DNA of 64,000 bases from Candidatus Bathyarchaeia archaeon (GTDB lineage Archaea > Thermoproteota > Bathyarchaeia > Bathyarchaeales > Bathycorpusculaceae). The stretch covers positions 53,552 through 117,551 of the forward strand of contig JBEKKX010000001.1 of assembly GCA_050010515.1 (NCBI GenBank), in the 5' to 3' direction. Below, piece after piece: positions 1 through 30,869 of this stretch. The first letter of the stretch is position 1, and the number at the start of each line of letters is the position of its first letter. Below the pieces are notes generated by a model that was given only the letters and a program-made list of their open reading frames with translations, did no database searches and was not told the DNA's origin. The position numbers and the translations under genes were made by a program.

Positions 1-1115
1 AAAGCATGAAAACAGCAACCATTGAAATCCCAAGCTTTACGGAACCAGAGTTTCCCCAGCCAGAAAACCTAACTGAAGCCCTGCTGCAACTGCTTTCGGC
101 TCCGAACATTGCCAGCAAAGAAAGCGTCATACGCACTTATGACCATGAAGTAAAAGGAAATACTACGCTTAAACCCTTACAAGGAGAGTACGCTGGACCA
201 AACGATGCAGCTGTACTGAAACCGCTTGATGATTCATGGAAAGGCTTGGCAATTTCGTGCGGTATGAACCCGAATTACGGAAAGATTGATGCTTACTGGA
301 TGGCTGCTTCAGCTATTGACGAGGCAGTGAGAAACAACATTGCCGTCGGCGGAAGAAGGATTGCGCTGCTGGATAATTTTACGTGGGGAAACCCTGAGAA
401 ACCAGAGCGCTTGGGCTCGCTAGTAAGAGCCTGCGAAGCCTGCTATGACTTTGCCAAGGCGTTTAGGACGCCGTTTATCTCTGGAAAAGACAGCCTCTAC
501 AACGAATCCCCGCTGGGTCCAGTTACGCCAACGCTTCTGATTACCGCCATAGGTATAATTCCTAACATTCAATTTACCACATCTATGGATTTGAAAGCGC
601 CCGGCAACCTGCTCTACATCATTGGTGACACATTCAATGAGCTGGGCGGTTCAGAATACTACAAACTCAAAGGCTACTTAGGTGCAAGCGTGCCCAAAGT
701 GAAAGGAGCCAGAGCCAAGCGCACGTTCAGAGCTGTAACTAAAGCCATCGATTTGGGCTTAATCAAATCGTGCCATGACCTTTCTGAAGGCGGGTTGGCA
801 GTGGCGGCGGCGGAGATGGCGTTTGCGGGTGGCTACGGCTTAGAGCTGGATTTAGGTAATGTACTCGGCAAAGCGTTAGAGCGAAATGACTTTGTGCTGT
901 TTTCAGAGTCAAACAGCCGCTTCCTCATTGAAGTCTCAGAAACTGATAGGCAGGAATTTGAGGCTTTAATGAAGGGAAAAAACTGCGCTAAAATTGGCAA
1001 AGTGACCGAAGACGAGAAACTGCTTATTCATGGGTTAAACCAGAAAATAGTAGTTGACGCTTCACTTGCCGAGCTGCGGTGTAGCTGGAAAAGAACGTTA
1101 AGCGGTGAACCCTAA
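1..1115 (+). CDS. purL: Phosphoribosylformylglycinamidine synthase subunit PurL, C-terminal part (5' end lies outside the window)
   Basis: Motifs YDHEV, LLDNFTWGNPE, FISGKDSLYN and CHDLSEGGL; frame open to the window edge; overlaps purQ. Confidence 0.95.
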   Translation, partial: SMKTATIEIPSFTEPEFPQPENLTEALLQLLSAPNIASKESVIRTYDHEVKGNTTLKPLQGEYAGPNDAAVLKPLDDSWKGLAISCGMNPNYGKIDAYWMAASAIDEAVRNNIAVGGRRIALLDNFTWGNPEKPERLGSLVRACEACYDFAKAFRTPFISGKDSLYNESPLGPVTPTLLITAIGIIPNIQFTTSMDLKAPGNLLYIIGDTFNELGGSEYYKLKGYLGASVPKVKGARAKRTFRAVTKAIDLGLIKSCHDLSEGGLAVAAAEMAFAGGYGLELDLGNVLGKALERNDFVLFSESNSRFLIEVSETDRQEFEALMKGKNCAKIGKVTEDEKLLIHGLNQKIVVDASLAELRCSWKRTLSGEP

Positions 1116-1938
1116 AATGAAGCTGGAAGAAATCAAAGTCTGTGTTATGCGCGTTGGCGGAACCAACTGCGATGCAGAAACCCAGCGGGCTTTTTTGGAG
1201 TTAGGTGTCCAAGCGGAGACTTTGCATGTTAACGAGTTAATAAAACGCAAAAACCTTCTTGATTACCAGGTGCTGGTTTTTCCAGGCGGCTTCTCCTTCG
1301 GCGATTATGTGCGTTCAGGCGTAATTTTTGCACGATGGCTCAGTGCTAAATTAGGCAAAGAAATTGAAGCTTTTATTGATGAAGGCAGACCGATTCTGGG
1401 AATATGCAACGGTTTCCAAATATTGGTTGAGTATGGTTTGCTTCCAGGCTTCGACGGAATGAGTACTTATCCTGAAGCTACATTGACCACGAATGAACCG
1501 CAAGGCTTCAAATGCCAATGGATTTACATGAAGCATGAAAATAGGGGAAAATGCGCTTTCACAAACAAAATTCCAGCTGGCAAGGTAGTGAGGATGCCGA
1601 TTGCCCATGGAGAAGGCAGGTTACTGTTCCCAAAGGAGAAAGAACAGGAAATGCTTGCAAAGCTAAACGATAATGACATGGTTGTTTTCCGATACTGCGA
1701 CAAAAACGGCAACAGTGCCGACGGCAAATACCCAGCTAATCCCAACGGTTCCACATATGACATTGCAGGCATATGCAGCAGGGAAGGAAACATTTTCGGT
1801 TTAATGCCTCATCCAGAGAGGGCAATGTACTGGTGGCAACAACCCGACTGGACACGGCAACAACAAATGCTGCAGTATGGCGACGGGAAACTAATCTTCC
1901 AAAGCATAATCGACAATTTAACCAAGAAGTGCTGGTAA
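1105..1938 (+). CDS. purQ: FGAM synthase glutaminase subunit PurQ
   Basis: GTNCD, PGGFSFGD, LGICNGFQ (catalytic Cys), AHGEG, MPHPER. Confidence 0.96.
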   Translation: MNPKMKLEEIKVCVMRVGGTNCDAETQRAFLELGVQAETLHVNELIKRKNLLDYQVLVFPGGFSFGDYVRSGVIFARWLSAKLGKEIEAFIDEGRPILGICNGFQILVEYGLLPGFDGMSTYPEATLTTNEPQGFKCQWIYMKHENRGKCAFTNKIPAGKVVRMPIAHGEGRLLFPKEKEQEMLAKLNDNDMVVFRYCDKNGNSADGKYPANPNGSTYDIAGICSREGNIFGLMPHPERAMYWWQQPDWTRQQQMLQYGDGKLIFQSIIDNLTKKCW

Positions 1939-1947
1939 ATCAGAGGA

Positions 1948-1977
1948 ATTGGCAAAAAAAAAGGTATATGTGCCAAT
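1948..1977. promoter_or_regulatory. 7-bp inverted repeat (ATTGGCA-N16-TGCCAAT) around a TATA-like element upstream of the AbrB gene; candidate autoregulatory operator
   Basis: Inverted repeat read directly from the sequence; function inferred. Confidence 0.35.
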
Positions 1978-2005
1978 AACATCATTATTTGCCAGTGATG
2001 ATTAT

Positions 2006-2251
2006 ATGTCTGTAGAAGTGGACAAATATGGACGCATAGTTCTACCTAAACAGATTCGCAAAAAATACGGCATGGATGAAGGCATTCGGCTTATCATCAC
2101 TGAGTATATGGGGCGTATTTGTCTTGTCCCTGTAAGGAAGTACGAAAAGCCTACTGAGATGTTATATGGCGCCGTGAAGTTGGAGATGCCTATAGAGGAG
2201 CCAAAGCACCTGGCAAGAGAACACATTCGCAAAAAGTTGGTTTTCGGCTAA
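2006..2251 (+). CDS. AbrB/MazE/SpoVT-family DNA-binding protein (likely ATG at 2006; the ORF track starts at 1949)
   Basis: VEVDKYGRIVLPKQIRKKYGMDEG is the typical swapped-hairpin N-terminus. Confidence 0.85.
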   Translation: MSVEVDKYGRIVLPKQIRKKYGMDEGIRLIITEYMGRICLVPVRKYEKPTEMLYGAVKLEMPIEEPKHLAREHIRKKLVFG

Positions 2252-2312
2252 TTTTCAAGTCTCACTTGCGCGTTGTCCTGAGGCTTCTTGGTTTTAATCT
2301 CATTAATTTTAA

Positions 2313-3224
2313 TTAAAGCGATTCTAAATCTTTTGAGTAGGGCAAGCCCGCGCGTGCACCCATCTGCATTACGCTTCTGGAAGCCACAAAATTCCCCAAC
2401 CGACCGCACTCATAGAGGCTTTTGCTGTTGATTAAGCCGTAGAGGAAGCCAGCGCAGAAAGCGTCCCCAGCACCTGTCGTATCGACCACTTTTACTTTGA
2501 AAGGTTCTATCCTAAGCCTTTCTCGACCGTCAGTAACGTAACAGCCTTTGCTGCCAAGTTTAACTGCAACGATTTTAACGCCCATTTCAATCATAAAATC
2601 CGCACCTTTGCAGAAATCAGCTTCTCCGGTTAAAAGTTCAAGTTCAACAGCGTTAGGCATCAAAACATAAGAGCTTCTAATTATTGGTTCTATGGCTACA
2701 AAACCCTTCCTTGCATACACTGAGCCTGGGTCAAAGCTAATTTTAACATCGCCAGGCAAGGTGGCTAAGAGCTTTTTTTGTGCACGAAGAGATTTTTCAC
2801 CAACAAAAGAGGAGTAATGCAAAAATTTTGTTTGAGAAAGATAATTTCTATCTATTTCGCGAGGCTCGATTGTGTCGTTGACGCCTGAGTTAATGTATAG
2901 GGCTCTTGCACCTTTCTTGTCCACGAAACCAAGCACCGAACCACTTTTTCCCTGTTTTGCCTGAATGATGCCAACGGTGTCGACGCCTTCATTGCTAAAA
3001 CAGTCAATTTGCAGTTTGCCTTCCCGGTCATTGGCTACTTTCCCTATGAAGCCAACTTTGCACCCGAGCCTCGCCAACCCAACCACGGTATTCGCGGCTG
3101 ACCCCCCGCAAGCCTCAGTGTAATCTTCAATGAAGCTTTCTTCTTCAGCCCCCGAAAGCTTATCAACTTTGAAGAGCATGTCAACGTTAAGTGCACCGAA
3201 ACCGACAACGTCAAATTTGGTCAT
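2313..3224 (-). CDS. PfkB/ribokinase-family carbohydrate or nucleoside kinase (EhaT-like position)
   Basis: GGSAAN, VKLGSKG, DTTGAGDAFCAG PfkB signature; ATGA overlap with the upstream Ftr-like gene. Confidence 0.9.
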   Translation of the reverse strand: MTKFDVVGFGALNVDMLFKVDKLSGAEEESFIEDYTEACGGSAANTVVGLARLGCKVGFIGKVANDREGKLQIDCFSNEGVDTVGIIQAKQGKSGSVLGFVDKKGARALYINSGVNDTIEPREIDRNYLSQTKFLHYSSFVGEKSLRAQKKLLATLPGDVKISFDPGSVYARKGFVAIEPIIRSSYVLMPNAVELELLTGEADFCKGADFMIEMGVKIVAVKLGSKGCYVTDGRERLRIEPFKVKVVDTTGAGDAFCAGFLYGLINSKSLYECGRLGNFVASRSVMQMGARAGLPYSKDLESL

Positions 3225-4129
3225 GGAAACAGCTCTCGCAAAAATATTTTATGTTCGCCTAGTTTGCCGCCATAGTTACCAGCGGAAACCTTCACGACAC
3301 CATCAATGCCTAACACTGCTCTGACTCCAGCTTTGGTGGCTTCTTTAACAGCATCTAAAGAAACGCCATCAAAAACTATCTCAGCTATATAACCTACGCC
3401 TTCTGGAACACGAGATTCTTTACCTAACCGCTCCCTAAGAGAGGGACAATACAGGTGGTTTGTTGTTGGACCAATCTTAGGAAAATGAGTTTCCGGCTTG
3501 GAGCCTGCAGAGCAGACATCAAAGGGCGTAACTACACCGTGAGCATCATGGATTGCAGCTAAGGCTTTTTCTCCAGCTTGCCTCAACGCTTCTTTTGTTT
3601 TGCACATTACCCAAAAGTTGCCGCCCATGATGCCACGACCATAGCCTAAGTACCGTTCAATGACGAAGTCAGGAACCATCAATGGGACAACGATTACTTC
3701 TCTGCCATGACGCTTCTCTACCCATTCATAGCCGTCGCCGCAGTGTCCAACGCTCTCCATCATGTCCATTTTTCCTTCAGCGCTTGGCAGAGCGTCAAAG
3801 ATAGCGGTAAAAGGCTTTACCAAAATGTCTTGGCGGATGCGGTAGGAAAGCTCAATTTCAAACTTTTTCAGTGATTCAGCAAATGTTTTTTTTGGGTTTA
3901 TTTCTCCCCAGAACTGCAGTATTGCACCTTTGCGTTTATCGGGAGTTTCTTTTTGGCTGAGGTATTTTTCGACGCCACCCTCTACTCTGCCAATCACAAC
4001 GGAGGGCATTGCTGTCGAATCCTCAGCAGCCTTGCGTAAGGTTTCTTCATCGTCGGCTGTAACAATTACTCGGCAAAAAATTCCAGTAAAGGCTTCGGCG
4101 TACGTGTCTTCTATTTCCGCTTTTGCCAT
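3221..4129 (-). CDS. Formylmethanofuran:H4MPT formyltransferase-family protein, divergent paralog (Ftr-II/EhaS-like)
   Basis: IEDTYAEAF, ETPD, GDGYE, GGNFW, TNHLYCP, SAGNYGGKLG; central motifs differ from canonical Ftr. Confidence 0.88.
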   Translation of the reverse strand: MAKAEIEDTYAEAFTGIFCRVIVTADDEETLRKAAEDSTAMPSVVIGRVEGGVEKYLSQKETPDKRKGAILQFWGEINPKKTFAESLKKFEIELSYRIRQDILVKPFTAIFDALPSAEGKMDMMESVGHCGDGYEWVEKRHGREVIVVPLMVPDFVIERYLGYGRGIMGGNFWVMCKTKEALRQAGEKALAAIHDAHGVVTPFDVCSAGSKPETHFPKIGPTTNHLYCPSLRERLGKESRVPEGVGYIAEIVFDGVSLDAVKEATKAGVRAVLGIDGVVKVSAGNYGGKLGEHKIFLRELFP

Positions 4130-4130
4130 T

Positions 4131-5213
4131 TTATCCTAGCCTCCCTATGGATACTCCTCGCACTTTCTTTCTAAACGTGTTGCTTTCTTTTACCAGTGTT
4201 TCCATATTTTGGGCTGTTACTATTTGAGCTTTAGGCAAGGCACCAGGGTAAAAGTCTGAGAGCTGCCTCAGCAAAGCCTTGTCCACTCCACTTTTCTTTA
4301 GCGCTTCATAATTCCAAGACTGAAGCGCGCACGTTGTTTTCTCTTTTCCAAACCTGCAGAACAAATCAGCAATCGCAGCAGTTACAAGATTGCTTTCAGA
4401 TAAAACTGCTAATTCAGCATTTTTGACTGCGTAACCGTTACCGTTGAAAGATACTGTTAAGCCACCGTTTGCCCGCACGAGTTTGAAAGCTTCCACGTCA
4501 GTTATGCTGTCGCCCACGTACATCACATCCCCTAATTCTGCACCTAAACGCTTCACGGCATCACGGATTGCTTGAGCTTTTTGTTCTCCACCAATCGTTA
4601 CAACATCAGTAAGCATCTTGCCAACGCTCATTTTGGGTATTTCGCTCCAGAAAACCTCATCCAAACGCTGAATTATCGCCTGGTCATTGCGCGAAAAATC
4701 TTCCCTTGCTCTTGCCGCTGGGGGGATATCGATTAGATGCATCTGTGTAATTTCCTTTGCTATTTCTTTTAGCCGCTCTTTTTCTTTTGGCGAGAGGGCA
4801 TATTTGTCGAGGCTTACTTTGGTGCAGTAGGTATTTTCGTAGGGAAAACTGAGTGCTTTGCACAAAGCCTTGATGTAGTGCTCGTAGCTGGTGCTGACGA
4901 TGAAGGCGCTAGCTATGGCTTGTATATGGTACAGAGTCTCTTTGCTGTGAGCAATTAAAACAACGTTTTTCTCTGAAAAGTCTTCCATCAGCTTATCCGT
5001 AACATCATAAGCCTTAAAGAAAGGCAAAACAAGCTTCAACGTGCTACCCGCAGAGTAACTGGGCTTTCGCAGAACATCCGCCAGCACATCATCGTACTTG
5101 CTTATGTTGGCAAAAAGTTTGTCTCCGTTTGGGATAAAATTTGCCGCTAACTCGAAGGCGTTGTCGTTCTTTGAGATTGGTCCTTCGCAGTCGGATATGA
5201 AGATGCGCTTCAC
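4131..5213 (-). CDS. HAD-superfamily phosphohydrolase, archaeal EhaR-like family (GTG start at 5213 overlaps the purD TGA)
   Basis: HAD motif I FISDCEGP, motif II VSTS, motif III GGEQK, motif IV YVGDSITD; GTGA overlap at 5210-5213. Confidence 0.78.
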   Translation of the reverse strand: MKRIFISDCEGPISKNDNAFELAANFIPNGDKLFANISKYDDVLADVLRKPSYSAGSTLKLVLPFFKAYDVTDKLMEDFSEKNVVLIAHSKETLYHIQAIASAFIVSTSYEHYIKALCKALSFPYENTYCTKVSLDKYALSPKEKERLKEIAKEITQMHLIDIPPAARAREDFSRNDQAIIQRLDEVFWSEIPKMSVGKMLTDVVTIGGEQKAQAIRDAVKRLGAELGDVMYVGDSITDVEAFKLVRANGGLTVSFNGNGYAVKNAELAVLSESNLVTAAIADLFCRFGKEKTTCALQSWNYEALKKSGVDKALLRQLSDFYPGALPKAQIVTAQNMETLVKESNTFRKKVRGVSIGRLG

Positions 5214-6625
5214 GCCTTGCGCCTCAAATTCTCCATGTGAAGTACGCTTTTTGCAATATGCTGTTTTGAGGCGATGTCCGTTCGGTTCCACAATGCCCCA
5301 CCAGTAATTGCTTTGGCTCCTTCAAGGCTGATTTGACGTGCTTCCGCGATGCTTTTGGCTATTCCTAAAACTCCGACCGCACGGGATTTCAAAGCGTAGT
5401 TTTTGCCGTTTCTTGTTTCCATTGAACCTGGATAAACGCGGATTCTAATGCCATACTTTTTGGTTAAGGCGTAGGCTTTTGAGAGGTCAACTGGCGTGTT
5501 AGCTAAGGATTTATCAATTTGGTTGGGGAACACTTCTGCGTAGCCACCGTAGTCTGGCGGAACCTTATAGGTTAAAACGGTTGCAGCCTTTTCCAACTCG
5601 ACACTCGTCAGGTTTCCTTCTATCATTTTGAAGCAGACGTCAACGAAATCGTCTTTGATTATTGGGAGGAGGTTGATTATTTCTGGGTCGCCAGGGCGAC
5701 TGTTGTTCTCAAGAACCTTAATTCCTTGTCCAGTGTGCATGAACGCTAGATATAAGGGCACGCCTCTGAGCGTCGAATCGTCTTTAATTTTAGCTTTCCA
5801 ACCCTTGAAAATTTTATTGGCTAAAGCAAGTTCCTGTTGGCGTTCAGCCGCAGTCAAGAAGGGCAATGTGTCGCCAATGTCTTTGTATGAGCCCATTCCG
5901 CCAGTGTTTGGACCTTTATCGTCGTCGAAGGCACGTTTGTAATCGCGTGTATCTGGCAGGGGAATAAAATGTTTGCCATCACAGAAAACCATGAAACTGG
6001 ATTCTTCCCCATCAATCTTTTCTTCTATGATAACCGAGCCGTATTGGAAGTTGGACATGAAATGCTCAAAAAGTTGCTCTCGGGTTGCGAAGTGGTCGCC
6101 CCAGACGCCGACGCCTTTTCCTAAAGCTGGTTTATCAGGCTTTACCACCGCTTGATTATCCAGTTCATCTAGCCAGCGGTAAACGGCGCTTTTAACGTCC
6201 GCTTCGCCCTTGTAGTCGGCTGGGTTAAAAATTTTAAAGCGGGGATTCGCTTCTGGCGCAATCTCTTGAAAAAGTTGGCGCTGCTCTATTTTGCTGGCTT
6301 CAATGGCGTATTGTTGCTTTGGACAAATGACAGGTATACCTGTGCGTTTCTCAACGAGGTCGCGGACGCCTTCAATTATGGGTTTTTCTGAACCAACCAG
6401 AACGAAATCGATTTTGTCCTTGTTTGATTCAGCGAACTTGCAGATTTCCTCAACGTCAAGGTTTGGAATGACAATGTGTTTTGTAGCTTTTTCTGCGTTG
6501 AAAGGGTTGCGCTGTTTATCAGCAATGTAGAGTTCGACTTGATAGTTTTTGCTTTGTAGAAGGGCGTCGACCATGGCGACTTCTCTTGCGCCGTAGGAAA
6601 CAACTAGGACACCGATTTTTTCCAT
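5210..6625 (-). CDS. purD: Phosphoribosylamine-glycine ligase
   Basis: GARE, VVKPD..ALGKGV, IEEKIDGEE, RDYKRAFDDDKGPNTGGMGS, NSRPGDPE. Confidence 0.93.
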   Translation of the reverse strand: MEKIGVLVVSYGAREVAMVDALLQSKNYQVELYIADKQRNPFNAEKATKHIVIPNLDVEEICKFAESNKDKIDFVLVGSEKPIIEGVRDLVEKRTGIPVICPKQQYAIEASKIEQRQLFQEIAPEANPRFKIFNPADYKGEADVKSAVYRWLDELDNQAVVKPDKPALGKGVGVWGDHFATREQLFEHFMSNFQYGSVIIEEKIDGEESSFMVFCDGKHFIPLPDTRDYKRAFDDDKGPNTGGMGSYKDIGDTLPFLTAAERQQELALANKIFKGWKAKIKDDSTLRGVPLYLAFMHTGQGIKVLENNSRPGDPEIINLLPIIKDDFVDVCFKMIEGNLTSVELEKAATVLTYKVPPDYGGYAEVFPNQIDKSLANTPVDLSKAYALTKKYGIRIRVYPGSMETRNGKNYALKSRAVGVLGIAKSIAEARQISLEGAKAITGGALWNRTDIASKQHIAKSVLHMENLRRKA

Positions 6626-6687: not shown

Positions 6688-8169
6688 TTATGGCTGAACT
6701 TCATCTAACTCGTAAATTCTCGTTTTCTCCTCGTAACCATTGAGGAATCTCTTTTTCATGGCATCAGCCATTTTTTGAGCACAGGGGGTGGGATACTTTC
6801 CTGTAACGCAGGCTAAACATAGTTGGTCTTCTGTTTGACCTGTAGCACGTACTAATGCCTCAGTGGATTGGTAGCATACGTCGTCTGCACCTATGATTTT
6901 AGCTATTTCCTGAGCGCTGTGTCTTGAGCCGACAAGTTGCCCGTAAGTTGACATATCAATCCCATAAAAGCAAGGACCAATAATTCGTGGAAAAGTAACG
7001 AAGACGTAAACTTTTTTGGCTCCTGATTTTCGTAATTTATCTATAATTACTTTGGTTGTGTCGCCTCTGACTATGCTGTCTTCGGTTATTATAACTCGTT
7101 TTCCATTAACTTTTGAACCTAAAATGTTGATTTTCTTATCGATTGTTGAAAAGCGCTCAGCGTTTAGGAGTATGAAGGCTCTCTCGGTAACATAACGGTG
7201 CCGTCTTGATGCCCGTTCCCATCGTAAGCCTGATGCTTCATGGACTCCCATGGCTGGGTCATCTCCTGTTTCAGGCACGGACAGAATTACTTCACTATCC
7301 TTTACTACTTCAGGGTATTCTTTAACAATATTTCTCCCGAATTCTTCACGTATTTCGTAAACGTATTTGTCGTCGAACCTTGAATCGGGCCTGGCAAAAT
7401 AAGCATATTCAAAAGCGCAAAAAGCTTGATGAGGGTTTGGAATGATTTGGGTGCGTTTGAAGCCGTCCTGTGAAACCGTAACCAATTCTCCTGGTTTCAG
7501 TTCGAAATCTCTTACAAAGCTGTTCATGTCTAAGCTTACGGTTTCAGAGGAAAAAGCGTAGGTTGCCCCAGCAGGGTCATGTCCAGCGCATAGCGGTTTT
7601 ATTCCAAGCGGGTCTTTGAAGGCGAAAAAGTCGCCGTCTCCGGTTATGCCTGTTACGGAGAATGCCCCATCTAAGCTTTCCATGACGGAGCGAACGGCAG
7701 ATACTAAGTCTTTGCCCTGTTTAAGTCCGAGGAGCAGTTTATGACATACTATGTCAGAGTCACAGCAATACTGAAAGTCTTGGAAGTTTTCGGTCATCTC
7801 TTTTTTCAGCGGCGACGTGTTAACTATGTTGCCGTTAAATGAGAGTGCAAGTTTTATCCCGTTTTCGCAAGCGGTAACTGGTTGAGTACCTTGAATAAGT
7901 GAGGCATCATCACATTTACCCGACGTGGTATATCGAACGTTGCCGATGCCTATTGACCCTGGAAGGCGCCCGAACCATTCATGTATAACCTCAGTTTTTA
8001 ATTTCGGAACCAAATCCAAGTTTTTATACACAAAAAATTGCTTGTCGCTGTATGTGAGGAAGCCGTGTGATTGGTGACCTCGATGGTTTTGGGCTCGGAG
8101 ACCCCAGTAAACATATGGAAAAACGGGTTGATTTTCATAATTTATTACGCCAAAGATACCGCAGCCTAT
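6688..8169 (-). CDS. purF: Amidophosphoribosyltransferase; the true N-terminus extends upstream of the ORF-track start (catalytic Cys at 8163-8161)
   Basis: In-frame upstream translation gives CGIFG...QNHRGHQSHG; RYTTSG, FNGN, CAFEYAYFARPDS, EDSIVRGDT, CFYGID. Confidence 0.93.
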   Translation of the reverse strand: MGCGIFGVINYENQPVFPYVYWGLRAQNHRGHQSHGFLTYSDKQFFVYKNLDLVPKLKTEVIHEWFGRLPGSIGIGNVRYTTSGKCDDASLIQGTQPVTACENGIKLALSFNGNIVNTSPLKKEMTENFQDFQYCCDSDIVCHKLLLGLKQGKDLVSAVRSVMESLDGAFSVTGITGDGDFFAFKDPLGIKPLCAGHDPAGATYAFSSETVSLDMNSFVRDFELKPGELVTVSQDGFKRTQIIPNPHQAFCAFEYAYFARPDSRFDDKYVYEIREEFGRNIVKEYPEVVKDSEVILSVPETGDDPAMGVHEASGLRWERASRRHRYVTERAFILLNAERFSTIDKKINILGSKVNGKRVIITEDSIVRGDTTKVIIDKLRKSGAKKVYVFVTFPRIIGPCFYGIDMSTYGQLVGSRHSAQEIAKIIGADDVCYQSTEALVRATGQTEDQLCLACVTGKYPTPCAQKMADAMKKRFLNGYEEKTRIYELDEVQP

Positions 8170-12967: not shown

Positions 12968-15316
12968 TCACTCCTTCATTTTACGAATCATTCTTGGAAG
13001 CAATGTCGGGTCAGGAATTACTGTTTCCTTCCAATCGTGTGCTTCCAGTATCTTGGTAAATTCATCTTTAAGTGTCATTGGCACATCAGCCATCGTTCTC
13101 ACCAACAAATGCAAATCCTGCGGCATGCATCCGTAGTGGCGTTTGTGTAGGTCAACGTAGTGGCTTAGTTTTATGCTGCGGCCTTTCCATGTGTCGTTTG
13201 GTCTTATGCAGAGCTTTGCGATGGAGACCATTGCTTCTTGTGGCGTTTCAACTGTTTGGAACAGGTGTTCAGGTGCTGGGCCAACGTTAACTTTGTTGCC
13301 TGTGCGGGCATCGTAAACTTCCCAATCTTCAGGCTTGTCTTCTCTGCCAAGGAGCATACGCCTGTATTTTGCACCGTGTGGACCAACAAGCACTGGGATT
13401 CCTAAGCGCCAGAATCCAGCTGCGATTGCCGCGGCTTTCTGTGAGTATGCACCCCACGCAAGGCCGACTGCACCTAAGCGGTTGTATATGTAATCGGCGA
13501 TTTCCTCGTAGTTGCCTCTGAGGTTGCGTTTGGCAAAAATGTTTGCTACTTTGATGGCTGCGCCTGCTATATGCGAGTTTGCTACGCATGAACCGACGTT
13601 TAGCACACCTCCAGCTTCGAATCCGCCTGGGAATTCCTCGTAGAGTGTTTTGCCTTCGCTGTTGCGGTAGCTGCCTGCAGACATGGCTGAGCATCCAGAT
13701 GTTACAACGATGTATCGTCTGCTGGCGAATTCTCTGCATATGTCGTAAACATCTTTGCCTCCGTGCGGATAATTGCTACATCCTACAACTGCCAATATGC
13801 CCGGGATTTCCCCGAGGACGATTGGGCTACCGACGTTTCGGATTTCGACATCTTGCACTGCTCCTCTACCGGCACGGCAAAAGTTATTTTCTTCAAGCAT
13901 GAATTTTTCGCCAGCTTTCACTATGAAGCTGTGAATGTTTAGTTTAACTGGACATGCTTCTTCGCATCTTCCACATCCAATACAGTACTCATATAGGTCG
14001 GTTAGTTGTGCAAGGTTTCCTTCGGCTGCTGCCTTTAGGGCTTGTGGGATTTTAAGGTCTTGTGGACAGCTTCTGCGGCACATGTCGCATTGCCTGCACG
14101 TCTTAGATAATTGCTTAATCTCATCTAAGCTTGGAAGATTGTTCATTTTTTTGCGGATTGGAGCGATTTGTTGTGCTACTCTTACGGCTACTTCGCCGAC
14201 TTTTTCTGGATCAAGGATCAACACGCCTGCCGCTTTGCCGCTTACAAGGTCAGCGACGATTTCGTCCGCTGAGTCATCTGTGCGGTTCTTGAAACCCATG
14301 CAGTTCTTCTCTGATGCGGCGATGACTGGAGCGTGAACTTTGCGTGCTTCGTCAAAAGCGTCTGTTCGGACACATTGCTCATCTAAAACGACAACGTCTG
14401 CGAATCCAGCTCTTATGAATCGTAGTTGCCAACTGATTGGGCCGACGATTTTGCCTCGGTTATAGTACCTTGTGATGTCGAAGGCGGTGCAGCATAGACC
14501 AATTACTTCTATTTTGTCATCGACTTTGTTATCTTTTGCGTAGTCTATGATTCCAACGGATGGAATTACGTTGTGACCAATGCACATGATAACTGGCTTA
14601 GAGGTATCGACACTACCTATGCCTAGTTGTATGAGAGGAGCCTCAGGGTCAGCTTTTGGAAAGCCCAATGTCGAAATTTGGATAATATCTCCGACTTCCA
14701 TGCCAACATGATCTATCATACCTACGTGGAAGGCTTTGGATTCAAAATCAAGGTTGTTGCCTTCTTGCCCTGTGTGCGCTACTGCTACTGCTTGAGTAAT
14801 TTGCTCTTCAGCGTACTCCAAAACTTCCTCCATGTCTCCAAGAGTCTGAGGCTTTATACCAGTAACAAGTCTGGTAACTGGCGCTTCAACTTTGATGTTT
14901 AAGCCACCTACATCTAAGGGGTATCGGCTGCCGTATTTTTCGACCAAGTGATGAAGCATGTGACGGGCATGAGCCGTGTGGGTTGCTGCACCAATGCAAC
15001 AGGCCAAAAGCACTATACGTGAAGACTGAGCACCGATGTCTAAGCCGCATGCACCACGCTTTCCAGCTGTCAAATCGCATTTTCCAAAAGTGCAAAGACA
15101 GCAAAGATCACAATCAGGCATATAGAAAGGTTTGTACCTGGTGAGGAGCCTCATGTCCCAGTCTCGCAGGGTACTCATTGATGGCATTGGAGTTGGACCC
15201 ATGGATTCCGTCCAGTTGTCAGTGGCAACTTTGCCTATAGATAATTCAAGATTTTTAATGAGACTACTGCTAGTCTTCATTTCGTCAATTTTTATACTAA
15301 CGTTTTTACTAGTCAA
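12968..15316 (-). CDS. cdhA: ACDS alpha subunit (Ni-CO dehydrogenase)
   Basis: CDLCCLCTFGKC, HTAH, GHN, GLCCT, DEQC, two ferredoxin motifs, GCSN, SGCS, VGSC. Confidence 0.97.
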   Translation of the reverse strand: MTSKNVSIKIDEMKTSSSLIKNLELSIGKVATDNWTESMGPTPMPSMSTLRDWDMRLLTRYKPFYMPDCDLCCLCTFGKCDLTAGKRGACGLDIGAQSSRIVLLACCIGAATHTAHARHMLHHLVEKYGSRYPLDVGGLNIKVEAPVTRLVTGIKPQTLGDMEEVLEYAEEQITQAVAVAHTGQEGNNLDFESKAFHVGMIDHVGMEVGDIIQISTLGFPKADPEAPLIQLGIGSVDTSKPVIMCIGHNVIPSVGIIDYAKDNKVDDKIEVIGLCCTAFDITRYYNRGKIVGPISWQLRFIRAGFADVVVLDEQCVRTDAFDEARKVHAPVIAASEKNCMGFKNRTDDSADEIVADLVSGKAAGVLILDPEKVGEVAVRVAQQIAPIRKKMNNLPSLDEIKQLSKTCRQCDMCRRSCPQDLKIPQALKAAAEGNLAQLTDLYEYCIGCGRCEEACPVKLNIHSFIVKAGEKFMLEENNFCRAGRGAVQDVEIRNVGSPIVLGEIPGILAVVGCSNYPHGGKDVYDICREFASRRYIVVTSGCSAMSAGSYRNSEGKTLYEEFPGGFEAGGVLNVGSCVANSHIAGAAIKVANIFAKRNLRGNYEEIADYIYNRLGAVGLAWGAYSQKAAAIAAGFWRLGIPVLVGPHGAKYRRMLLGREDKPEDWEVYDARTGNKVNVGPAPEHLFQTVETPQEAMVSIAKLCIRPNDTWKGRSIKLSHYVDLHKRHYGCMPQDLHLLVRTMADVPMTLKDEFTKILEAHDWKETVIPDPTLLPRMIRKMKE

Positions 15317-24380: not shown

Positions 24381-24713
24381 ATACCCCGCATTTGTAGATA
24401 AGCATGTTTTCAGCCTTCTGGATAAAAAATTTTACTAAATAAATGATCTTAAATCCAAATTAAACCACTACAAAAAACGGAGGACCATTTTTTTCATTAC
24501 TCAAAACAGGAACGGACGTATAGCACCAGCCTCCTCCTTTGCGTAGTTCTGCTTTCACACTGTCAGCTGTGCGATTTTACCTTAGCGCAAAATTTTTTCT
24601 TTAGTTTGTGCTTCCCATGAGCGCAAAAGAATAGTCGTCATAGAGCAAAGATGAAACTTTCAAGATTGCTAGCATTTAATGTTTATATATAATTGGTCGA
24701 TTATGCTACCGCC

Positions 24714-25775
24714 ATGAGCTCCAAAAAATTTGGCTTTGAGGACTCCCTTTTAACTGAAGTTGTTCAAACCGGAAAATGTGCAAGTTGCGGCACGTGCGTC
24801 GTCGTCTGCCCATTCGGTAGCCTTGAACTTGCCAAGGGAAAACCCAATTTGGTGAAAGAATGCAAGGTCTGCGGCATATGCGCTCAAGCCTGCCCCAGAT
24901 ACAGTTGGGATGTGGCGAAAGCAGAGAACTTTGTTTTCGGCAGGGTAAGAAAACCTGAAGAGGAATTCGGAGTTTTCCGCAGAATAGCTATAGCCCAAGC
25001 AAAACCCAGTGACATTCAGAAGGTTCGCCAAGACGGAGGAGCTGCCACCGCAATGCTGGTAGCTGCTCTGCAGAACGGACTAATCGACGGAGCCGTCGTT
25101 TCAGGAAAAAGCCAAGAAAAACCCTTCCTTCCGGTCCCGATTCTCGCCACGACGCCTCAGAAAATCGTCGAGGCAGCAGGGACAAAATACTCCTTTTCCT
25201 CTGCGCTTCTCGGCTTGCCCGAAGTGATTAGGCAGAAAAAGACTCAAATCGCGTTCGTAGGTACACCCTGCCAAATTCACGCGGTAAGAAAGATGCAGAT
25301 GACCGGCGTGAAAAAGTTCAGTGCGCCAATCAAGTACCTTGTGGGGCTCATGTGTTCAGAATGCTTCGATTACGAAGGGCTCATGGAAACCCACATAAAA
25401 GGCAAACTCGGCATTAACCTGAACGATATTACAAAAATGAACATTAAAGGAAAAATGCTCGTAACGACGTCCGCAGGAATTACAGCTATTCCCCTTGCAG
25501 ACATAAAACCGTACGTTAGAAAAAGCTGCAGCGTATGCGAAGACTTCAGCTCCGAACTCGCAGACATCTCAGTCGGCGGACTGGGACTTGACGGCTGGAC
25601 ATTCACGATTATCCGAACAGAAAAAGGCGAAGAACTATTTACAAACGCCGAAAAAACAGGATTCTTGGAATCAAAGCCGCTGGAGCAAGGAGCCTTCTCG
25701 AAGGGGTTACTGCTTAAGCTTTCAAAGAAAAAACGCGATACAGCCGCAGCCGCTCAAGCTCAGCCAAAGCAATAA
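24714..25775 (+). CDS. FrhB/FdhB/FpoF-family F420-binding flavoprotein with an N-terminal 2x[4Fe-4S] domain (ORF track starts at 24693)
   Basis: CASCGTC...CP, CKVCGICAQACP; QDGGAAT, AGTKY, VGTPCQ, GLMCSE, CSVCEDF, ADISVGG. Confidence 0.9.
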   Translation: MSSKKFGFEDSLLTEVVQTGKCASCGTCVVVCPFGSLELAKGKPNLVKECKVCGICAQACPRYSWDVAKAENFVFGRVRKPEEEFGVFRRIAIAQAKPSDIQKVRQDGGAATAMLVAALQNGLIDGAVVSGKSQEKPFLPVPILATTPQKIVEAAGTKYSFSSALLGLPEVIRQKKTQIAFVGTPCQIHAVRKMQMTGVKKFSAPIKYLVGLMCSECFDYEGLMETHIKGKLGINLNDITKMNIKGKMLVTTSAGITAIPLADIKPYVRKSCSVCEDFSSELADISVGGLGLDGWTFTIIRTEKGEELFTNAEKTGFLESKPLEQGAFSKGLLLKLSKKKRDTAAAAQAQPKQ

Positions 25776-25887
25776 ACATCGAAAATTTCAAGAAGCTTCC
25801 TTTTTCCTCGCATCTTTAAGGACCTTTTACGTTTAGCGCGTATATAATCGGGCGTATATCATGATTCTGACCACGTGACTGCTGGGT

Positions 25888-26538
25888 TCAGTGGCGATTG
25901 CCTATCTTGAATTGCTCTAGAACTCTTCGACAAGCAGTGTTGCCTTCTGTTTTGAACAGTTTGTCTAAGTCTTCGACAGAATCTATGTCCGTAGCCACGC
26001 CTGTTGAATGATGAAGCTTCAAGCAGACTCCTCTTCTGTGTGCCTCTTTGACGTGCTTTGCGAAGCTTCTTGGTCCAAAACACGCCTGAATCAAGTTCGG
26101 TGGACTCTGAAAAAGAGCGTTCGTGCCACCATCGTAAGAGCGAGACAATACTACGGTTTGCTCTTCGCAGTTTCCTAACTCAACTATCTTGTCCACATCC
26201 ATGGAAGACAGCAACGGGATGTCGGCTGGCAGTATGAGCACGGCTTCTGCCCCATTCTGCATGCACCATTCAGTCGCCTCTTCGACCGCGGGGTTCAGAC
26301 CACTGGTTTTCTGGACAAGGTGTGTAGCACGATATTTGTTTGTAAAATTCCTCAGTGAAAAATCGTTGCTAACGACGACAATTTCGTTAACAGTCGAGGT
26401 CTGCAGTGCATTTAAAACGTCTTCCAGCATAGCCAGCGTCAATTGTCTACGTTCCTGCGGACTTAGAACTGAAGAAAGACGCTTCTTTGAGGTGCCTAAG
26501 CCCTTGACGATTACAACCGCGTAAACAAACATGTCCAA
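25888..26538 (-). CDS. cofC: 2-phospho-L-lactate (PEP) guanylyltransferase
   Basis: VK....SKKRLSSVLSPQER, GLNPA, PADIPL, GGTN, DIDSVEDL. Confidence 0.92.
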   Translation of the reverse strand: MDMFVYAVVIVKGLGTSKKRLSSVLSPQERRQLTLAMLEDVLNALQTSTVNEIVVVSNDFSLRNFTNKYRATHLVQKTSGLNPAVEEATEWCMQNGAEAVLILPADIPLLSSMDVDKIVELGNCEEQTVVLSRSYDGGTNALFQSPPNLIQACFGPRSFAKHVKEAHRRGVCLKLHHSTGVATDIDSVEDLDKLFKTEGNTACRRVLEQFKIGNRH

Positions 26539-26754
26539 GCCGCCAGATACGTTGCATCGTGGACAACGAAGCTGGTATTATTGAATTGTTTGTTGTAGCC
26601 TAAAAATTTTTAGATGTACGCCTTAAAGGCTCAAAGTCAACATGTATGTTAACGCAAAATAATTTGTCTTCATTTTATATAGAGCAAACCAGCTTGGTAT
26701 GCAAAAGATTTTTTAATCCAAACCTAGTTAGGCTTTAGCCGAGATGACATCTCT

Positions 26755-27480
26755 GTGAAAATACTAAATGAGTTTGTTCCCACACGCAAATTTTTAAAGC
26801 TTGCAGATGAAATTAAAGATCTAGTTGATGGATGGAACGTTACTGATAGTGCTGCTGGTTTTCCAGCTCCAAGCGGTACAGTTGTAAGTTGCGTCCTCAA
26901 ATCTAAATATCCTGAGAAAATAATTGTACCAATATTTATACTGCACTATAAAGGACCGGTCGAAGTAGGAGGTTTAGCATTAGCTGCAGACGTTATAGGT
27001 CTCGACGGTTTGGCAGTTACCATGGGCGACAAACCCAAGTACGGAGAGCCCATAAAAATGTTGGCGTCCTCTGAGGAAGCCCGAGACTTCATACGTAACA
27101 CGGTGAAAACTAAGAACCTAAAGCTAGGCTGTTTACTGACAGCACGGCGATCTGTGGAGGAAACCCTTGCCCGTGTGAGAGAGCCATGGGACTTTATCTA
27201 TTTCATGAGGCTAGAAGACAAATCCTTCCCAATCCTAGAGCAAGTAGCAGCAGAATGCAAGAAACTAAACAAGCCAATCTACGCATACTTCCTAGTTGGA
27301 ACAGCCAAAAACGTAGAAACAGTTAAAATGATTGGGTGGCCAACCGCCGCAACCATGGATACAGTTGAAGAAAAAGCAGCAAAGCTCAATGGCCTCGTAG
27401 ACGGCATAATTGCAACCTGTGCTGGAGACGCCGAAGGCGACAAAGAGATGCTACGAAAGCTCCAAAAGTTCAGGAGCTAA
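26755..27480 (+). CDS. Short MetF/MTHFR-like FAD TIM-barrel protein
   Basis: EFVP, NVTDSAAG, GDKP motifs resemble MTHFR; shorter than canonical MetF. Confidence 0.55.
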   Translation: MKILNEFVPTRKFLKLADEIKDLVDGWNVTDSAAGFPAPSGTVVSCVLKSKYPEKIIVPIFILHYKGPVEVGGLALAADVIGLDGLAVTMGDKPKYGEPIKMLASSEEARDFIRNTVKTKNLKLGCLLTARRSVEETLARVREPWDFIYFMRLEDKSFPILEQVAAECKKLNKPIYAYFLVGTAKNVETVKMIGWPTAATMDTVEEKAAKLNGLVDGIIATCAGDAEGDKEMLRKLQKFRS

Positions 27481-27489
27481 GACAGCTAA

Positions 27490-27692
27490 TCAATGCAAAA
27501 ATGCATCCTTAACTGTCTTTTCATCTTGTTTCTTTCTAATTCTTTTTTCGTTTTTTCATGATGCTTAAGCTTTTTTCGTTTAAGGTGATGGCAGCCTCAT
27601 TTTCTTTTAGGCAGAACGAAAGATTATTAGTTGATCAGAAATGGTTCCAACTTCTCAGCGGGAACTAACTCAACTAATTTAGGATAATCCAT
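27490..27692 (-). pseudogene. Possible eroded small gene (strong RBS, ATG, then a frameshift and stops)
   Basis: AGGAGTGA upstream of ATG GAT TAT CCT AAA (MDYPKLVELVPAEKLEP...), stop after 21 codons; protein-like continuation in another frame. Confidence 0.3.
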
Positions 27693-27858
27693 TCTTGGTT
27701 CACTCCTAAACGAACAGATATTACTTGATTGCTTGAAAAAGCATGTCGTAATGTATTTTCAAAAAGCTGGCTTGTACGCCGCTTTTGGCTTTAAATGCAG
27801 ATAAGCTTTAAAGTGAATGTGCATATGTAGCCACCTATTATTCATTGAGGACATAAGC

Positions 27859-28617
27859 ATGGAACCGGTAAAAGTAATTGCAGTTGAAGGTTTACCGTTA
27901 ATACAGAAAGGGAACAATATAGCTGAACTAATAGTTAATGCTGCAAAAAAGCAGAAAACACCCATACAAGATAAGGACGTAATCGTTGTCACTCACGTAG
28001 CCGTTTCAAAAGCGGAAGGAAACATAATCAACCTTGACGAAATCACACCTTCAAAGAAGGCAAAGGAAATAGCGCAACAAACAAACAAAGACCCTGCCCT
28101 AGTTGAGGTTATTCTCAGAGAAACCAAAGAAATAGTTCGAATAGGCCAAAACAGCATCATAACAGAAACCAAAAGTGGAGTAATTTGTGCTAATGCCGGA
28201 GTAGACAGGTCTAACGTTTCGGGCGACAGAAACGTTGTGCCACTGCCAAAAAACCCAAACGCTTCTGCACAAAACATAAGACAAGAAATAAAACAGTTAA
28301 CAGGCGCCAACGTTGCAGTAATCGTCTCTGATACGCATGGAAGACCCTTCCGCATGGGTGAAATAAACGTGGCAGTTGGCGTAGCAGGAATCAAGCCTAT
28401 TAGAGACAGACGAGGCGAAAAAGACCTCTTTGGATATGTTCTTCGAATAAAACAAACCGCGATCGCCGACGAATTATCCTCAGCAGCGGAACTTATGATT
28501 GGTCAATCGAATGAAGGAATACCAGCTGCCATTATCCGAGGGTACAATTACCAAACAACTGAAGATGTATCAGCTACCGAACTCACTAGACCAAAAGAAA
28601 AAGACCTCTTCAGATAA
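27859..28617 (+). CDS. cofE: Coenzyme F420-0:gamma-glutamyl ligase
   Basis: SKAEG, CANAGVDRSN, SDTHGRPFR, ADELSSAAELMIGQSNEG. Confidence 0.94.
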   Translation: MEPVKVIAVEGLPLIQKGNNIAELIVNAAKKQKTPIQDKDVIVVTHVAVSKAEGNIINLDEITPSKKAKEIAQQTNKDPALVEVILRETKEIVRIGQNSIITETKSGVICANAGVDRSNVSGDRNVVPLPKNPNASAQNIRQEIKQLTGANVAVIVSDTHGRPFRMGEINVAVGVAGIKPIRDRRGEKDLFGYVLRIKQTAIADELSSAAELMIGQSNEGIPAAIIRGYNYQTTEDVSATELTRPKEKDLFR

Positions 28618-28671
28618 GTCATTCAATAAGGTTCAATAATCTAACCTCTTGTAAAATACGAGATACATGAG

Positions 28672-29010
28672 TTGAAAATGATGAAAGCTAAAACGCCTAA
28701 GGAATTCTTTGAAAAAATGTTACCAGTCAGATTTAAGCCTGATAAATCAGTAGGCATTGATGTTGTAGCTCAATTAAACTTAACTGGTGCAAAAGGAGGC
28801 GACTGGGTCGTCATCATAAGAGACCAAAAATTGCAGGTTAGAGAAGGAACTATTCCTTCGCCCACGTTGACGTTGAAGATGGTAGAAAACGATTTCATGG
28901 ATATTGTAAACGATAAATTAAGTACAGAAAAAGCTTTTTTCACGGGCAAAATTAATTTTGAAGGAAACCTGAGTTTGGCGTTAAAATTAAAGGATGCAGG
29001 CTTTCTTTAA
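28672..29010 (+). CDS. SCP2 sterol-carrier-domain protein
   Basis: G GDW V I, PTLTLKM...DFM, AFFTGKINFEGNLSLALKL. Confidence 0.85.
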   Translation: MKMMKAKTPKEFFEKMLPVRFKPDKSVGIDVVAQLNLTGAKGGDWVVIIRDQKLQVREGTIPSPTLTLKMVENDFMDIVNDKLSTEKAFFTGKINFEGNLSLALKLKDAGFL

Positions 29011-29012
29011 GA

Positions 29013-29558
29013 TTATTTCAACCCAAGCTTACTCACAACTTCTAAAGGCAAATCATCCTCACCGATTTTAAAGGTGTGTGGCTCTTCAATCTTCAAGATT
29101 ACCCGTAGATCTTCGGGATCTAATTCTCGGATAAGATGAGTTAATTCTTTTTTAGCTATCTCAAAATGGTCCTTGAAAGCAGCTTTGTTGCTGTAAAATA
29201 CTCCTGCGAAAGCGCAGATTTCAGGTTTTTTTAGGAACCATTCAACTTTTTTGGTGGAAAAGTTAATGTCAAATGTTACTGGTCCAGCCCTGCATGTTTC
29301 AGGCTTGACGGGGTGTACCGAGCATTTTCCTGTGTCTTTATCGAAAAGCCTGCAGAAAACAAGTTCGTCAACTGCGGGATAAGAATAGTGTTCTTTAGCG
29401 AATGGTTTTTCAATGTTAATCTTTTGCTTTTCTATGTATTCTTTTATTATTTTTTTTCGTTTTTCGCTTAGTGGTGGTTTGGCGTCTTGGCAGCAGCTAA
29501 TTTTGCATTGGCTACAAACATCAAACGAATAAGTTGCTCCATTCTTGTCTTCAGGCAT
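29013..29558 (-). CDS. YkgJ-family Cys-cluster protein
   Basis: CSQCKISCC; CRLFD..TGKCSVHPVKPETCR.GP. Confidence 0.85.
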   Translation of the reverse strand: MPEDKNGATYSFDVCSQCKISCCQDAKPPLSEKRKKIIKEYIEKQKINIEKPFAKEHYSYPAVDELVFCRLFDKDTGKCSVHPVKPETCRAGPVTFDINFSTKKVEWFLKKPEICAFAGVFYSNKAAFKDHFEIAKKELTHLIRELDPEDLRVILKIEEPHTFKIGEDDLPLEVVSKLGLK

Positions 29559-29575
29559 TAAGGTGACACCATTTT

Positions 29576-30745: not shown

Positions 30746-30869
30746 TTCAAGCGGTTTATACGTAGGCTATGCCTCTTTTTGTTTAGAGTTAATTTTGGAT
30801 GCGAATATAATGATAGTTAATCTTAAATATAACTGCACTAATAACGCCTTTTAATTAACCTGGTGTCTC

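Follow-up and report, generated by a model that had tools for sequence, protein, structure and literature searches.

The formylation of glycinamide ribonucleotide (GAR) to formylglycinamide ribonucleotide (FGAR), the third step of purine synthesis, is carried out by PurN, which depends on 10-formyl-tetrahydrofolate, or by PurT, an ATP-grasp enzyme which uses free formate and ATP by way of a formyl-phosphate intermediate and provides folate-independent GAR formylation in archaea. Neither enzyme was found in two Archaeoglobi, four Methanobacteriales and Methanopyrus kandleri, whose pathways are otherwise intact (Brown et al. 2011, PMC3261824), and ANME-1 (anaerobic methanotrophic archaea) also lack both (Chadwick et al. 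2022, PMC9012536); the enzyme which formylates GAR in Methanobacteriales, Archaeoglobales, Methanopyrus and ANME-1 was listed as missing in 2011 and again in 2022. Here, we analyse a 64,000-nucleotide stretch of DNA from a Bathyarchaeia archaeon (contig JBEKKX010000001.1, positions 53,552 to 117,551; hereafter the window), in which genes for a haloacid dehalogenase (HAD)-like protein, a paralogue of formylmethanofuran:tetrahydromethanopterin formyltransferase (Ftr) and a PfkB-family kinase are coupled to the purine genes purF and purD. We consider this trio the strongest candidate so far for the GAR formyltransferase that has been described as absent from several archaeal groups since 2011, and the locus supplies named candidate genes and a testable reaction for a gap stated twice in the literature.

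EhaR, EhaS and EhaT, encoded by the last three genes of the eha operon of Methanobacteriales, are orthologues of the three proteins. The trio is co-transcribed with ehaA-R in Methanothermobacter, of which bulk cultures can be grown; the initial annotations of EhaS and EhaT were formyltransferase and ribokinase, functions which were judged unlikely solely from the co-transcription with eha, and no function has been assigned to the eha-linked versions (Kaster et al. 2011, PMC3087415). Ftr2, a clade which coexists with Ftr1 and was uncharacterised as of Chadwick et al. 2022, is present in ANME-1, ANME-2a/b, Archaeoglobales, M. kandleri and Methanothermobacter (PMC9012536). Methanothermobacter thermautotrophicus is a purine prototroph, PurP covers the formylation of 5-aminoimidazole-4-carboxamide ribonucleotide (AICAR) in Methanobacteriales and Archaeoglobi, and M. 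stadtmanae takes its purine C8 from the C2 of acetate (PMC3261824), which therefore points to a pterin-bound C1 donor. Our literature search found no paper tying Ftr2 or EhaR/S/T to purines.

The purD-coupled trio in Bathyarchaeia

Five genes, purF, purD and those encoding the HAD-like, Ftr-like and PfkB proteins, lie head to tail on the minus strand of the window. The first, purF (amidophosphoribosyltransferase, step 1; 6688..8169), matches the NCBIfam purF model with 286 bits on a truncated open-reading frame, and purD (GAR synthetase, step 2; 5210..6625) matches Pfam GARS_N, GARS_A and GARS_C. The encoded PurD is long (471 amino acids) and, because it falls below the NCBIfam purD cut-off (242 vs. 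288 bits) and matches only weakly in its C-domain, we regard it as a divergent GAR synthetase. The gene for the HAD-superfamily protein (4131..5213, 360 amino acids, EhaR family, weak matches to Pfam Hydrolase_3, Hydrolase and HAD) begins with a GTG which overlaps the purD stop codon (GTGA), its own stop codon is 1 nucleotide from the ATG of the Ftr-like gene (3221..4129, Pfam FTR and FTR_C, an EhaS-clade paralogue which we refer to as Ftr2), and an ATGA overlap joins the latter to the ribokinase-like PfkB gene (2313..3224, Pfam PfkB E 2e-51, an EhaT orthologue). On the plus strand two genes of step 4 converge on the kinase gene: the C-terminal part of purL (1..1115, positions 378–714 of the NCBIfam PurL profile), which exits the left window edge, and purQ, the glutaminase subunit of formylglycinamidine ribonucleotide synthase (1105..1938, 321 bits against NCBIfam NF002252 PurQ, cut-off 298). 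When E. coli PurN and PurT were searched against the whole window (six-frame phmmer --max), the best E-value was 0.28 and no homologue was found, including of the Formyl_trans_N fold with the N106/H108/D144 triad that defines PurN, nor was there a gene of the PurT type. The gene order and junctions of the original prediction were thus confirmed, as was the absence of PurN and PurT from the window that it had noted.

We scanned one genome per species with a narrower EhaR alignment and recovered 80 further loci, all of them from Bathyarchaeia, with HAD protein identities of 56–91% across these other species; the top matches of both the HAD and the Ftr proteins were likewise all to Bathyarchaeia. 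In every one of the 80 loci, so far as the contig extends, purF, purD, HAD, Ftr and PfkB are colinear, so the synteny with purine genes is not confined to one genome, and in most of them purM, purS, purL and purQ are convergent with the block. A 2.35-Mb Bathyarchaeia contig (locus L005) carries cdh, purF, purD, HAD, Ftr and PfkB facing purQ, purL, purS and purM, with full-length purL, purS and purM at the position that matches the window. The pur cluster of the window and its related loci therefore covers steps 1, 2, 4 and 5, with step 3 alone missing, and no match to PurN or PurT was found in the 80 loci of ~21 kb each. The tight junctions were conserved as well: the purD/HAD junction is −4 nucleotides in 66 of 79 Bathyarchaeia loci and the Ftr/PfkB junction −4 nucleotides in 63 of 76, whilst HAD and Ftr are separated by a few bases at most in nearly all. 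The arrangement is not due to chance. In the window cdhABCDE lie directly upstream of purF; across the 80 loci, however, cdhCDE adjoins the block in only ~30, whereas purF-purD adjoins it in all. As adjacency to cdh is often lost and adjacency to pur is kept, selection therefore maintains the link to the purine genes and not to those of acetyl-CoA synthase.

The trio proteins, their relatives and their partners

The HAD protein has a large cap domain, and its C-terminal tail is conserved. When cluster representatives were searched exhaustively, ~460 clusters fell into the EhaR family at E < 1e-10, in which the JGI name for the Bathyarchaeia proteins is ‘energy-converting hydrogenase A subunit R’. 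Residues D8, E10, G11, S107, K212, D235 and D239 are conserved in the family and all four HAD catalytic motifs are present, with D8, E10, S107/T108, K212, D235 and D239 invariant or nearly so in 36–70 diverse members. The first motif reads D-x-E-G-P, so that the acid at +2 is Glu and not Asp; enolase-phosphatase E1, an active enzyme, also has D-x-E. We dropped an inactive scaffold, which the D-x-E motif might suggest, as the default for this protein, the catalytic motifs being nearly invariant across the family. Because every catalytic residue is kept, we treat the EhaR-family HAD as a putatively active phosphoryl-transfer enzyme. Among its relatives only AF1437 of Archaeoglobus fulgidus has a solved structure (PDB 1Y8A, E 2e-30); AF1437 belongs to the same HAD family and has the same D-x-E-G-P motif (DWEGP vs. 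DCEGP), but is a structural-genomics protein without a reported function or partner.

The Ftr-like protein aligns at full length (residues 4–301) with the Ftr chains in the PDB and has their two-lobe FTR fold, with PF01913 (FTR) at residues 3–150 (E 5e-44) and PF02741 (FTR_C) at residues 153–300 (E 2e-52). It exceeds the cut-off of the NCBIfam Ftr subfamily NF002554 (333 vs. 297 bits) and retains, at the E of ‘IAEIVFDG’, the Glu whose catalytic role is described for M. kandleri (Glu245) and for FhcD (Glu252; PMC6926001). Identity to Methanobrevibacter EhaS is 49%, but only 36–41% to crystallised Ftr1 (1M5H, 1M5S, 1FTR), whilst those three share 60–68% mutually across three orders. The window protein neither clusters with Ftr1 nor keeps the blocks that are invariant in Ftr1, which are altered alike in the window protein and EhaS (for example VIMCPAEAGIE to VIGRVEGGVE, KFFADGY to CGDGYEW and GIAGGNFFIMA to GIMGGNFWVMC), and the two have a 2-residue deletion in common relative to Ftr1. 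All 80 purine-linked Bathyarchaeia Ftr proteins show the same EhaS-clade pattern. These sequence features place the window Ftr in the divergent clade of EhaS, the ‘Ftr2’ of Chadwick et al. 2022, and outside Ftr1. It resembles Ftr1/FhcD (PDB 1FTR, 2FHJ, 1M5H, 1M5S) in its two-lobe fold, its catalytic Glu and, presumably, its chemistry, the passage of a formyl group between the N5 of a pterin and a primary amine; it differs in always being encoded with the HAD protein and kinase, and in its systematically changed sequence blocks.

The kinase scored 169 bits against the ribokinase equivalog TIGR02152, far from the cut-off of 299.65, and is thus not a true ribokinase by that test. In an alignment with E. 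coli RbsK, the module kinases keep N14, D16, G41, G42, N46 and D255, of which we take N14 and D16 to bind the cis-diol of ribose and D255 to be the catalytic Asp; K43, the presumed contact to the anomeric side of free ribose, has become Ser in all of them. Because the cis-diol and catalytic residues are kept and K43 is replaced, the kinase appears to fit a riboside substrate. Module kinases are 33–52% identical to one another across archaea and bacteria vs. 23–27% to E. coli RbsK, identities by which they form one group.

A parallel with the tail of the eha operon, which the original prediction had drawn, proved to be real. In a Methanobrevibacter contig (locus L093) ehaA to ehaQ are followed by HAD, Ftr and PfkB genes in the same order as in the window, and the proteins share 41%, 49% and 43% identity, respectively, with those of the window. 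The window trio is thus orthologous to EhaR, EhaS and EhaT and identically ordered, but is attached to purD and purF and not to a hydrogenase operon: no eha gene was found in the window or in the 80 related Bathyarchaeia loci. Eha, according to Lie et al. in 2012, is reportedly anaplerotic and regenerates formyl-methanofuran that has been withdrawn for biosynthesis; if Eha does replenish formyl-methanofuran, linkage to eha would make sense for a module which drains formyl groups into purines.

Outside Bathyarchaeia, the spread of the family was assembled from cluster look-ups and single contigs, and here the HAD protein is found beside other formyltransferases. Methanomassiliicoccales have the order PfkB, PurN-type (275 amino acids), HAD, two bacterial lineages (L094 and L098) have PfkB, PurN-type, HAD, and Methanomethylophilaceae have PurN-type, HAD. 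Three representatives of the EhaR family are fusions, one with an N-terminal PurN-family domain and two with an N-terminal ATP-grasp region (fusion proteins P0314, at 1207–3006 of locus L006; P0312; and P0330/P0471, in loci L007, L008 and L096). The PurN-type fusion (599 amino acids, in a bacterial context with ruvAB) has PurN as its best NCBIfam match and keeps N106, H108 and D144, whilst the other fusions (899–961 amino acids) have PurT as their best family match and colinear BLAST matches to E. coli PurT. The gene neighbourhoods of the PurT-like fusions in L007, L008 and L096, like that of L097, offered no further clue. The separately encoded PurN-type partners, too, keep N106, H108 and D144; they are ~270 amino acids long, belong to a family of at least 4,830 members and are named phosphoribosylglycinamide formyltransferase by NCBI and JGI in Methanomassiliicoccales and Thermoplasmata. 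Their G-N-G-S-N loop, which we take to bind the phosphate of GAR, has become G-R-D-x-x. The partner formyltransferases match PurN and PurT best, and not PurH or PurP. Similarity among the HAD proteins is independent of the type of partner, that of the window being 45% identical to a PurN-partnered Methanomassiliicoccales protein and 41% to the Ftr-partnered protein of Methanobrevibacter. 

In Aenigmarchaeota, purQ is followed by HAD and by a kinase-like gene, back to back with purB-purC-purE, so that purine genes neighbour the module in two phyla. The gene after HAD (L095 and L101; 1390–1926) encodes a 178-amino-acid P-loop protein of the AAA_28 family in the place of PfkB. AAA_28 includes riboside kinases such as NadR, and this may be a second part of the module that has been swapped for an unrelated enzyme of the same function. 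A metagenome scan seeded with the Aenigmarchaeota HAD protein returned only that same protein, at a contig end. As a separate observation on the PurN-type genes, an archease gene precedes that of Methanomethylophilaceae (L091 8739–9998), and archease is fused to a PurN-type domain in one protein (P0570, 423 amino acids).

A proposed GAR formylation reaction and its rivals

We favour, with more confidence than doubt, a reading in which the trio performs the GAR-to-FGAR step of purine synthesis with Ftr2 as the formyltransferase, and the module is probably a folate-independent one in an archaeon which uses methanofuran and tetrahydromethanopterin (H4MPT) in the place of folate. By comparison of sequences and gene orders, we infer which substrate and formyl donor are used, what each protein catalyses and in which order the reactions run. 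The tie to purine synthesis which the original prediction had proposed is upheld by the coupling to purD in Bathyarchaeia, by a link to pur that outlasts the link to cdh, and by the position of HAD after purQ and near purE-purC-purB in Aenigmarchaeota; its narrower claim of a role in GAR formylation gained support from HAD proteins that are adjacent or fused to PurN-type enzymes or fused to PurT-like ATP-grasp domains. The simplest reading of these partners would be a conserved module in which the formyl-transferring part is swapped to suit the C1 carrier and the HAD protein, and usually the kinase, is kept. Elsewhere the PurN-type protein sits in the position of Ftr2, and the two would perform the same step from the same place in the pur cluster, but they share no sequence or fold kinship, PurN needs folate, which archaea with H4MPT only lack, and no requirement for a phosphatase or kinase partner is known for canonical PurN. 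Finding the HAD protein as a constant partner beside all three types of formyltransferase was unexpected, and suggests that a textbook step is not yet fully understood. The predicted anti-correlation of the trio with PurN and PurT also agrees with the literature: published lists of Ftr2 carriers and of archaea lacking PurN and PurT, which have been kept separate, nearly coincide, ANME-2a/b being the exception (PMC3261824, PMC9012536).

In the proposed reaction, PurD makes GAR, the EhaR-family HAD would remove or hold the ribose 5'-phosphate of the GAR/FGAR substrate, Ftr2 would put a formyl group on the glycinamide amine, PfkB, acting as a 5'-kinase on the riboside, would restore the phosphate, and PurL would take FGAR onward. 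The most conservative chemistry would have N5-formyl-H4MPT as the donor and GAR in place of the primary amine of methanofuran, the smallest change since GAR, like methanofuran, offers a primary amine; formyl-methanofuran would be an alternative donor. Moving the formyl group of formyl-H4MPT onto the furan amine costs just +4.4 kJ/mol (PMC6926001), and an analogous transfer to GAR could be drawn forward by PurL, whose step is driven by ATP. With purD, HAD, Ftr2 and PfkB in this order, the genes parallel a route in which GAR is made, loses its phosphate, is formylated and regains the phosphate. We are more tentative about such a literal route of dephosphorylation, formylation and rephosphorylation as a general scheme, in which many archaea and some bacteria would use an interchangeable Ftr-, PurN- or PurT-type part and a kinase or phospho-enzyme would restore the phosphate; we hold it possible but doubtful, with the lack of the G-N-G-S-N loop in the PurN-type partners in favour of formylation at the level of the riboside. 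Such a scheme would establish a third, non-homologous class of GAR transformylase, connect purine C8 directly with the methanogenic/Wood-Ljungdahl C1 pool and account for the genes riding on the anaplerotic hydrogenase operon in Methanobacteriales. The riboflavin/flavin mononucleotide route offers an analogy: there, a HAD phosphatase takes off the 5'-phosphate, the dephospho form is processed and a kinase later puts the phosphate back, although pathway and enzymes are unrelated and it is a precedent for the detour only. A variant in which the aspartyl-phosphate of the HAD protein holds and returns the phosphate, with the kinase as a back-up and the ATP cost avoided, is pure speculation.

Several observations weigh against a role of the trio in GAR formylation. 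By sequence alone, ordinary Ftr activity is possible for the window protein because it passes the NCBIfam Ftr cut-off, and a published gene table of termite-gut Bathyarchaeia gives one ftr locus tag in the rows covered; if Ftr2 were the sole Ftr of Bathyarchaeia, the Wood-Ljungdahl role must fall on it too. ANME-2a/b have both PurN and Ftr2 (PMC9012536), which makes the anti-correlation imperfect. The locus tags of A. fulgidus (AF1437 for HAD, AF2207 for ftr-2) suggest that the two genes are not adjacent there. Both bacterial modules are divergent from and next to a CUT1-type sugar ATP-binding cassette (ABC) transporter, with a binding protein and two permeases (L094 1–3852, L098 3674–6842), and L094 also has a LacI-type regulator; the transporters hint at uptake of an external sugar or riboside. 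Finally, a cycle of phosphatase and kinase costs one ATP without an obvious need, above all with a 10-formyl-folate donor.

Among the rival explanations, we consider a different ribosyl substrate or a salvage role unlikely, though the least so: the trio would act on AICAR (step 9) or on imported glycinamide, 5-aminoimidazole-4-carboxamide or aminoimidazole ribosides, with the kinase feeding the nucleotide pool. A ribokinase-like kinase with the free-ribose contact K43 replaced, the CUT1-type transporters by both bacterial modules with the regulator in L094, and the P-loop AAA_28 gene in place of PfkB in Aenigmarchaeota are all compatible with this, but PurP already covers step 9 in Methanobacteriales and Archaeoglobi and the gap is at step 3, the module is flanked in two phyla by the gene for making GAR (purD) and by those for using FGAR (purQ/purL), and the partner formyltransferases are closest to PurN and PurT and not to PurH or PurP. 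That the window protein is an ordinary Wood-Ljungdahl Ftr, which lies near cdh for that reason and has the HAD protein and kinase as unrelated neighbours, seems to us quite improbable. Its NF002554 score, its catalytic Glu, the cdhABCDE genes directly upstream and the single ftr tag in the covered rows of the termite-gut table are what such an enzyme would show; adjacency to cdh is nevertheless lost in ~50 of the 80 species in which purD, HAD, Ftr and PfkB are still joined by overlapping codons, the EhaS clade is found alongside a functional Ftr1 in Methanobacteriales, Archaeoglobales and M. kandleri, and HAD and kinase partners accompany Ftr2 across phyla.

A role in the biosynthesis of C1 coenzymes (H4MPT, methanofuran or F420), in which a pterin or furan intermediate would be the ligand of the Ftr-like protein and have its ribosyl or ribityl part modified by the phosphatase and kinase, is very improbable in our view. 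To our knowledge several steps of H4MPT synthesis, including a dephosphorylation, are still without enzymes, and the F420 genes cofC, cofE and frhB lie within the window; the synteny, however, is with purine and not with coenzyme genes, and the HAD and kinase pair accompanies a folate-type formyltransferase in Methanomassiliicoccales and in bacteria, organisms which, as far as we know, lack H4MPT. We give hardly any credence to the reading of the Methanothermobacter literature that counts EhaR, EhaS and EhaT among the subunits or maturation factors of the Eha hydrogenase: they are co-transcribed with ehaA-R in Methanothermobacter (PMC3087415) and arranged in the same way in Methanobrevibacter, but no eha gene accompanies the trio in 81 Bathyarchaeia loci, and the HAD protein and kinase stand beside a PurN-type enzyme in Methanomassiliicoccales and bacteria, which bears out the earlier claim that the trio is not a hydrogenase accessory.

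The metabolic step proposed for the trio is itself textbook; we found no earlier description of the proposed enzyme class, of the HAD protein and kinase as its constant partners or of a link to the methanogenic C1 pool. If GAR formylation by the trio holds true, purine C8 in these organisms would be drawn directly from the methanofuran/H4MPT C1 pool, and annotations as ‘Ftr’, ‘EhaR’, ‘ribokinase’ or ‘HAD hydrolase’ would, in their thousands, be wrong or incomplete. A gap in the metabolic models of methanogens and Bathyarchaeia could then be closed, and the tail of the eha operon would have a rationale.

The purF start codon and other genes of the window

The purF gene upstream of the trio has an unusual beginning. 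Mechanical prediction places its open-reading frame at 6688–8031, but the reading frame goes on upstream of its first GTG (8031) to the catalytic Cys at 8161–8163, where it reads KIGCGIFGV and contains no ATG, GTG or TTG. The true start is probably the ATA at 8167–8169, which would give M-G-C-G-I-F-G: ‘ATA GGC TGC’ is conserved in ~70 Bathyarchaeia loci, with ATG or ACG in a few species, and in Bathyarchaeia purF a stop codon often lies 1–2 codons upstream of the ATA. Gene callers therefore shorten purF to 421–447 amino acids owing to the non-canonical start. We ruled out the Cys-less PurF' of Brown et al. for this gene, as the catalytic Cys is found upstream of the miscalled start.

The remainder of the window, which includes NuoF/HoxF-like, frhB, cofC and cofE genes, fits an archaeon which uses the Wood-Ljungdahl pathway and F420. 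A coenzyme-related group at 24693–32442 comprises frhB-like, cofC and cofE (F420 gamma-glutamyl ligase) genes, a GCS2-family ligase and a RimK-type ATP-grasp pair (RLAN and RimK), and a 241-amino-acid open-reading frame at 26755–27480 had no Pfam match. There are also two convergent, full-length deoxyhypusine synthase paralogues (32510–33481 on the plus strand and 33486–34613 on the minus strand; Pfam DS, E 5e-108 and 7e-88), which lie tail to tail and 4 nucleotides apart. Between purQ and the kinase gene, an open-reading frame at 1949–2251 on the plus strand encodes a MazE-like antitoxin; since the L005 contig has a PIN toxin and MazE antitoxin pair at the same position (12970–13619), the copy in the window may be an orphan antitoxin.

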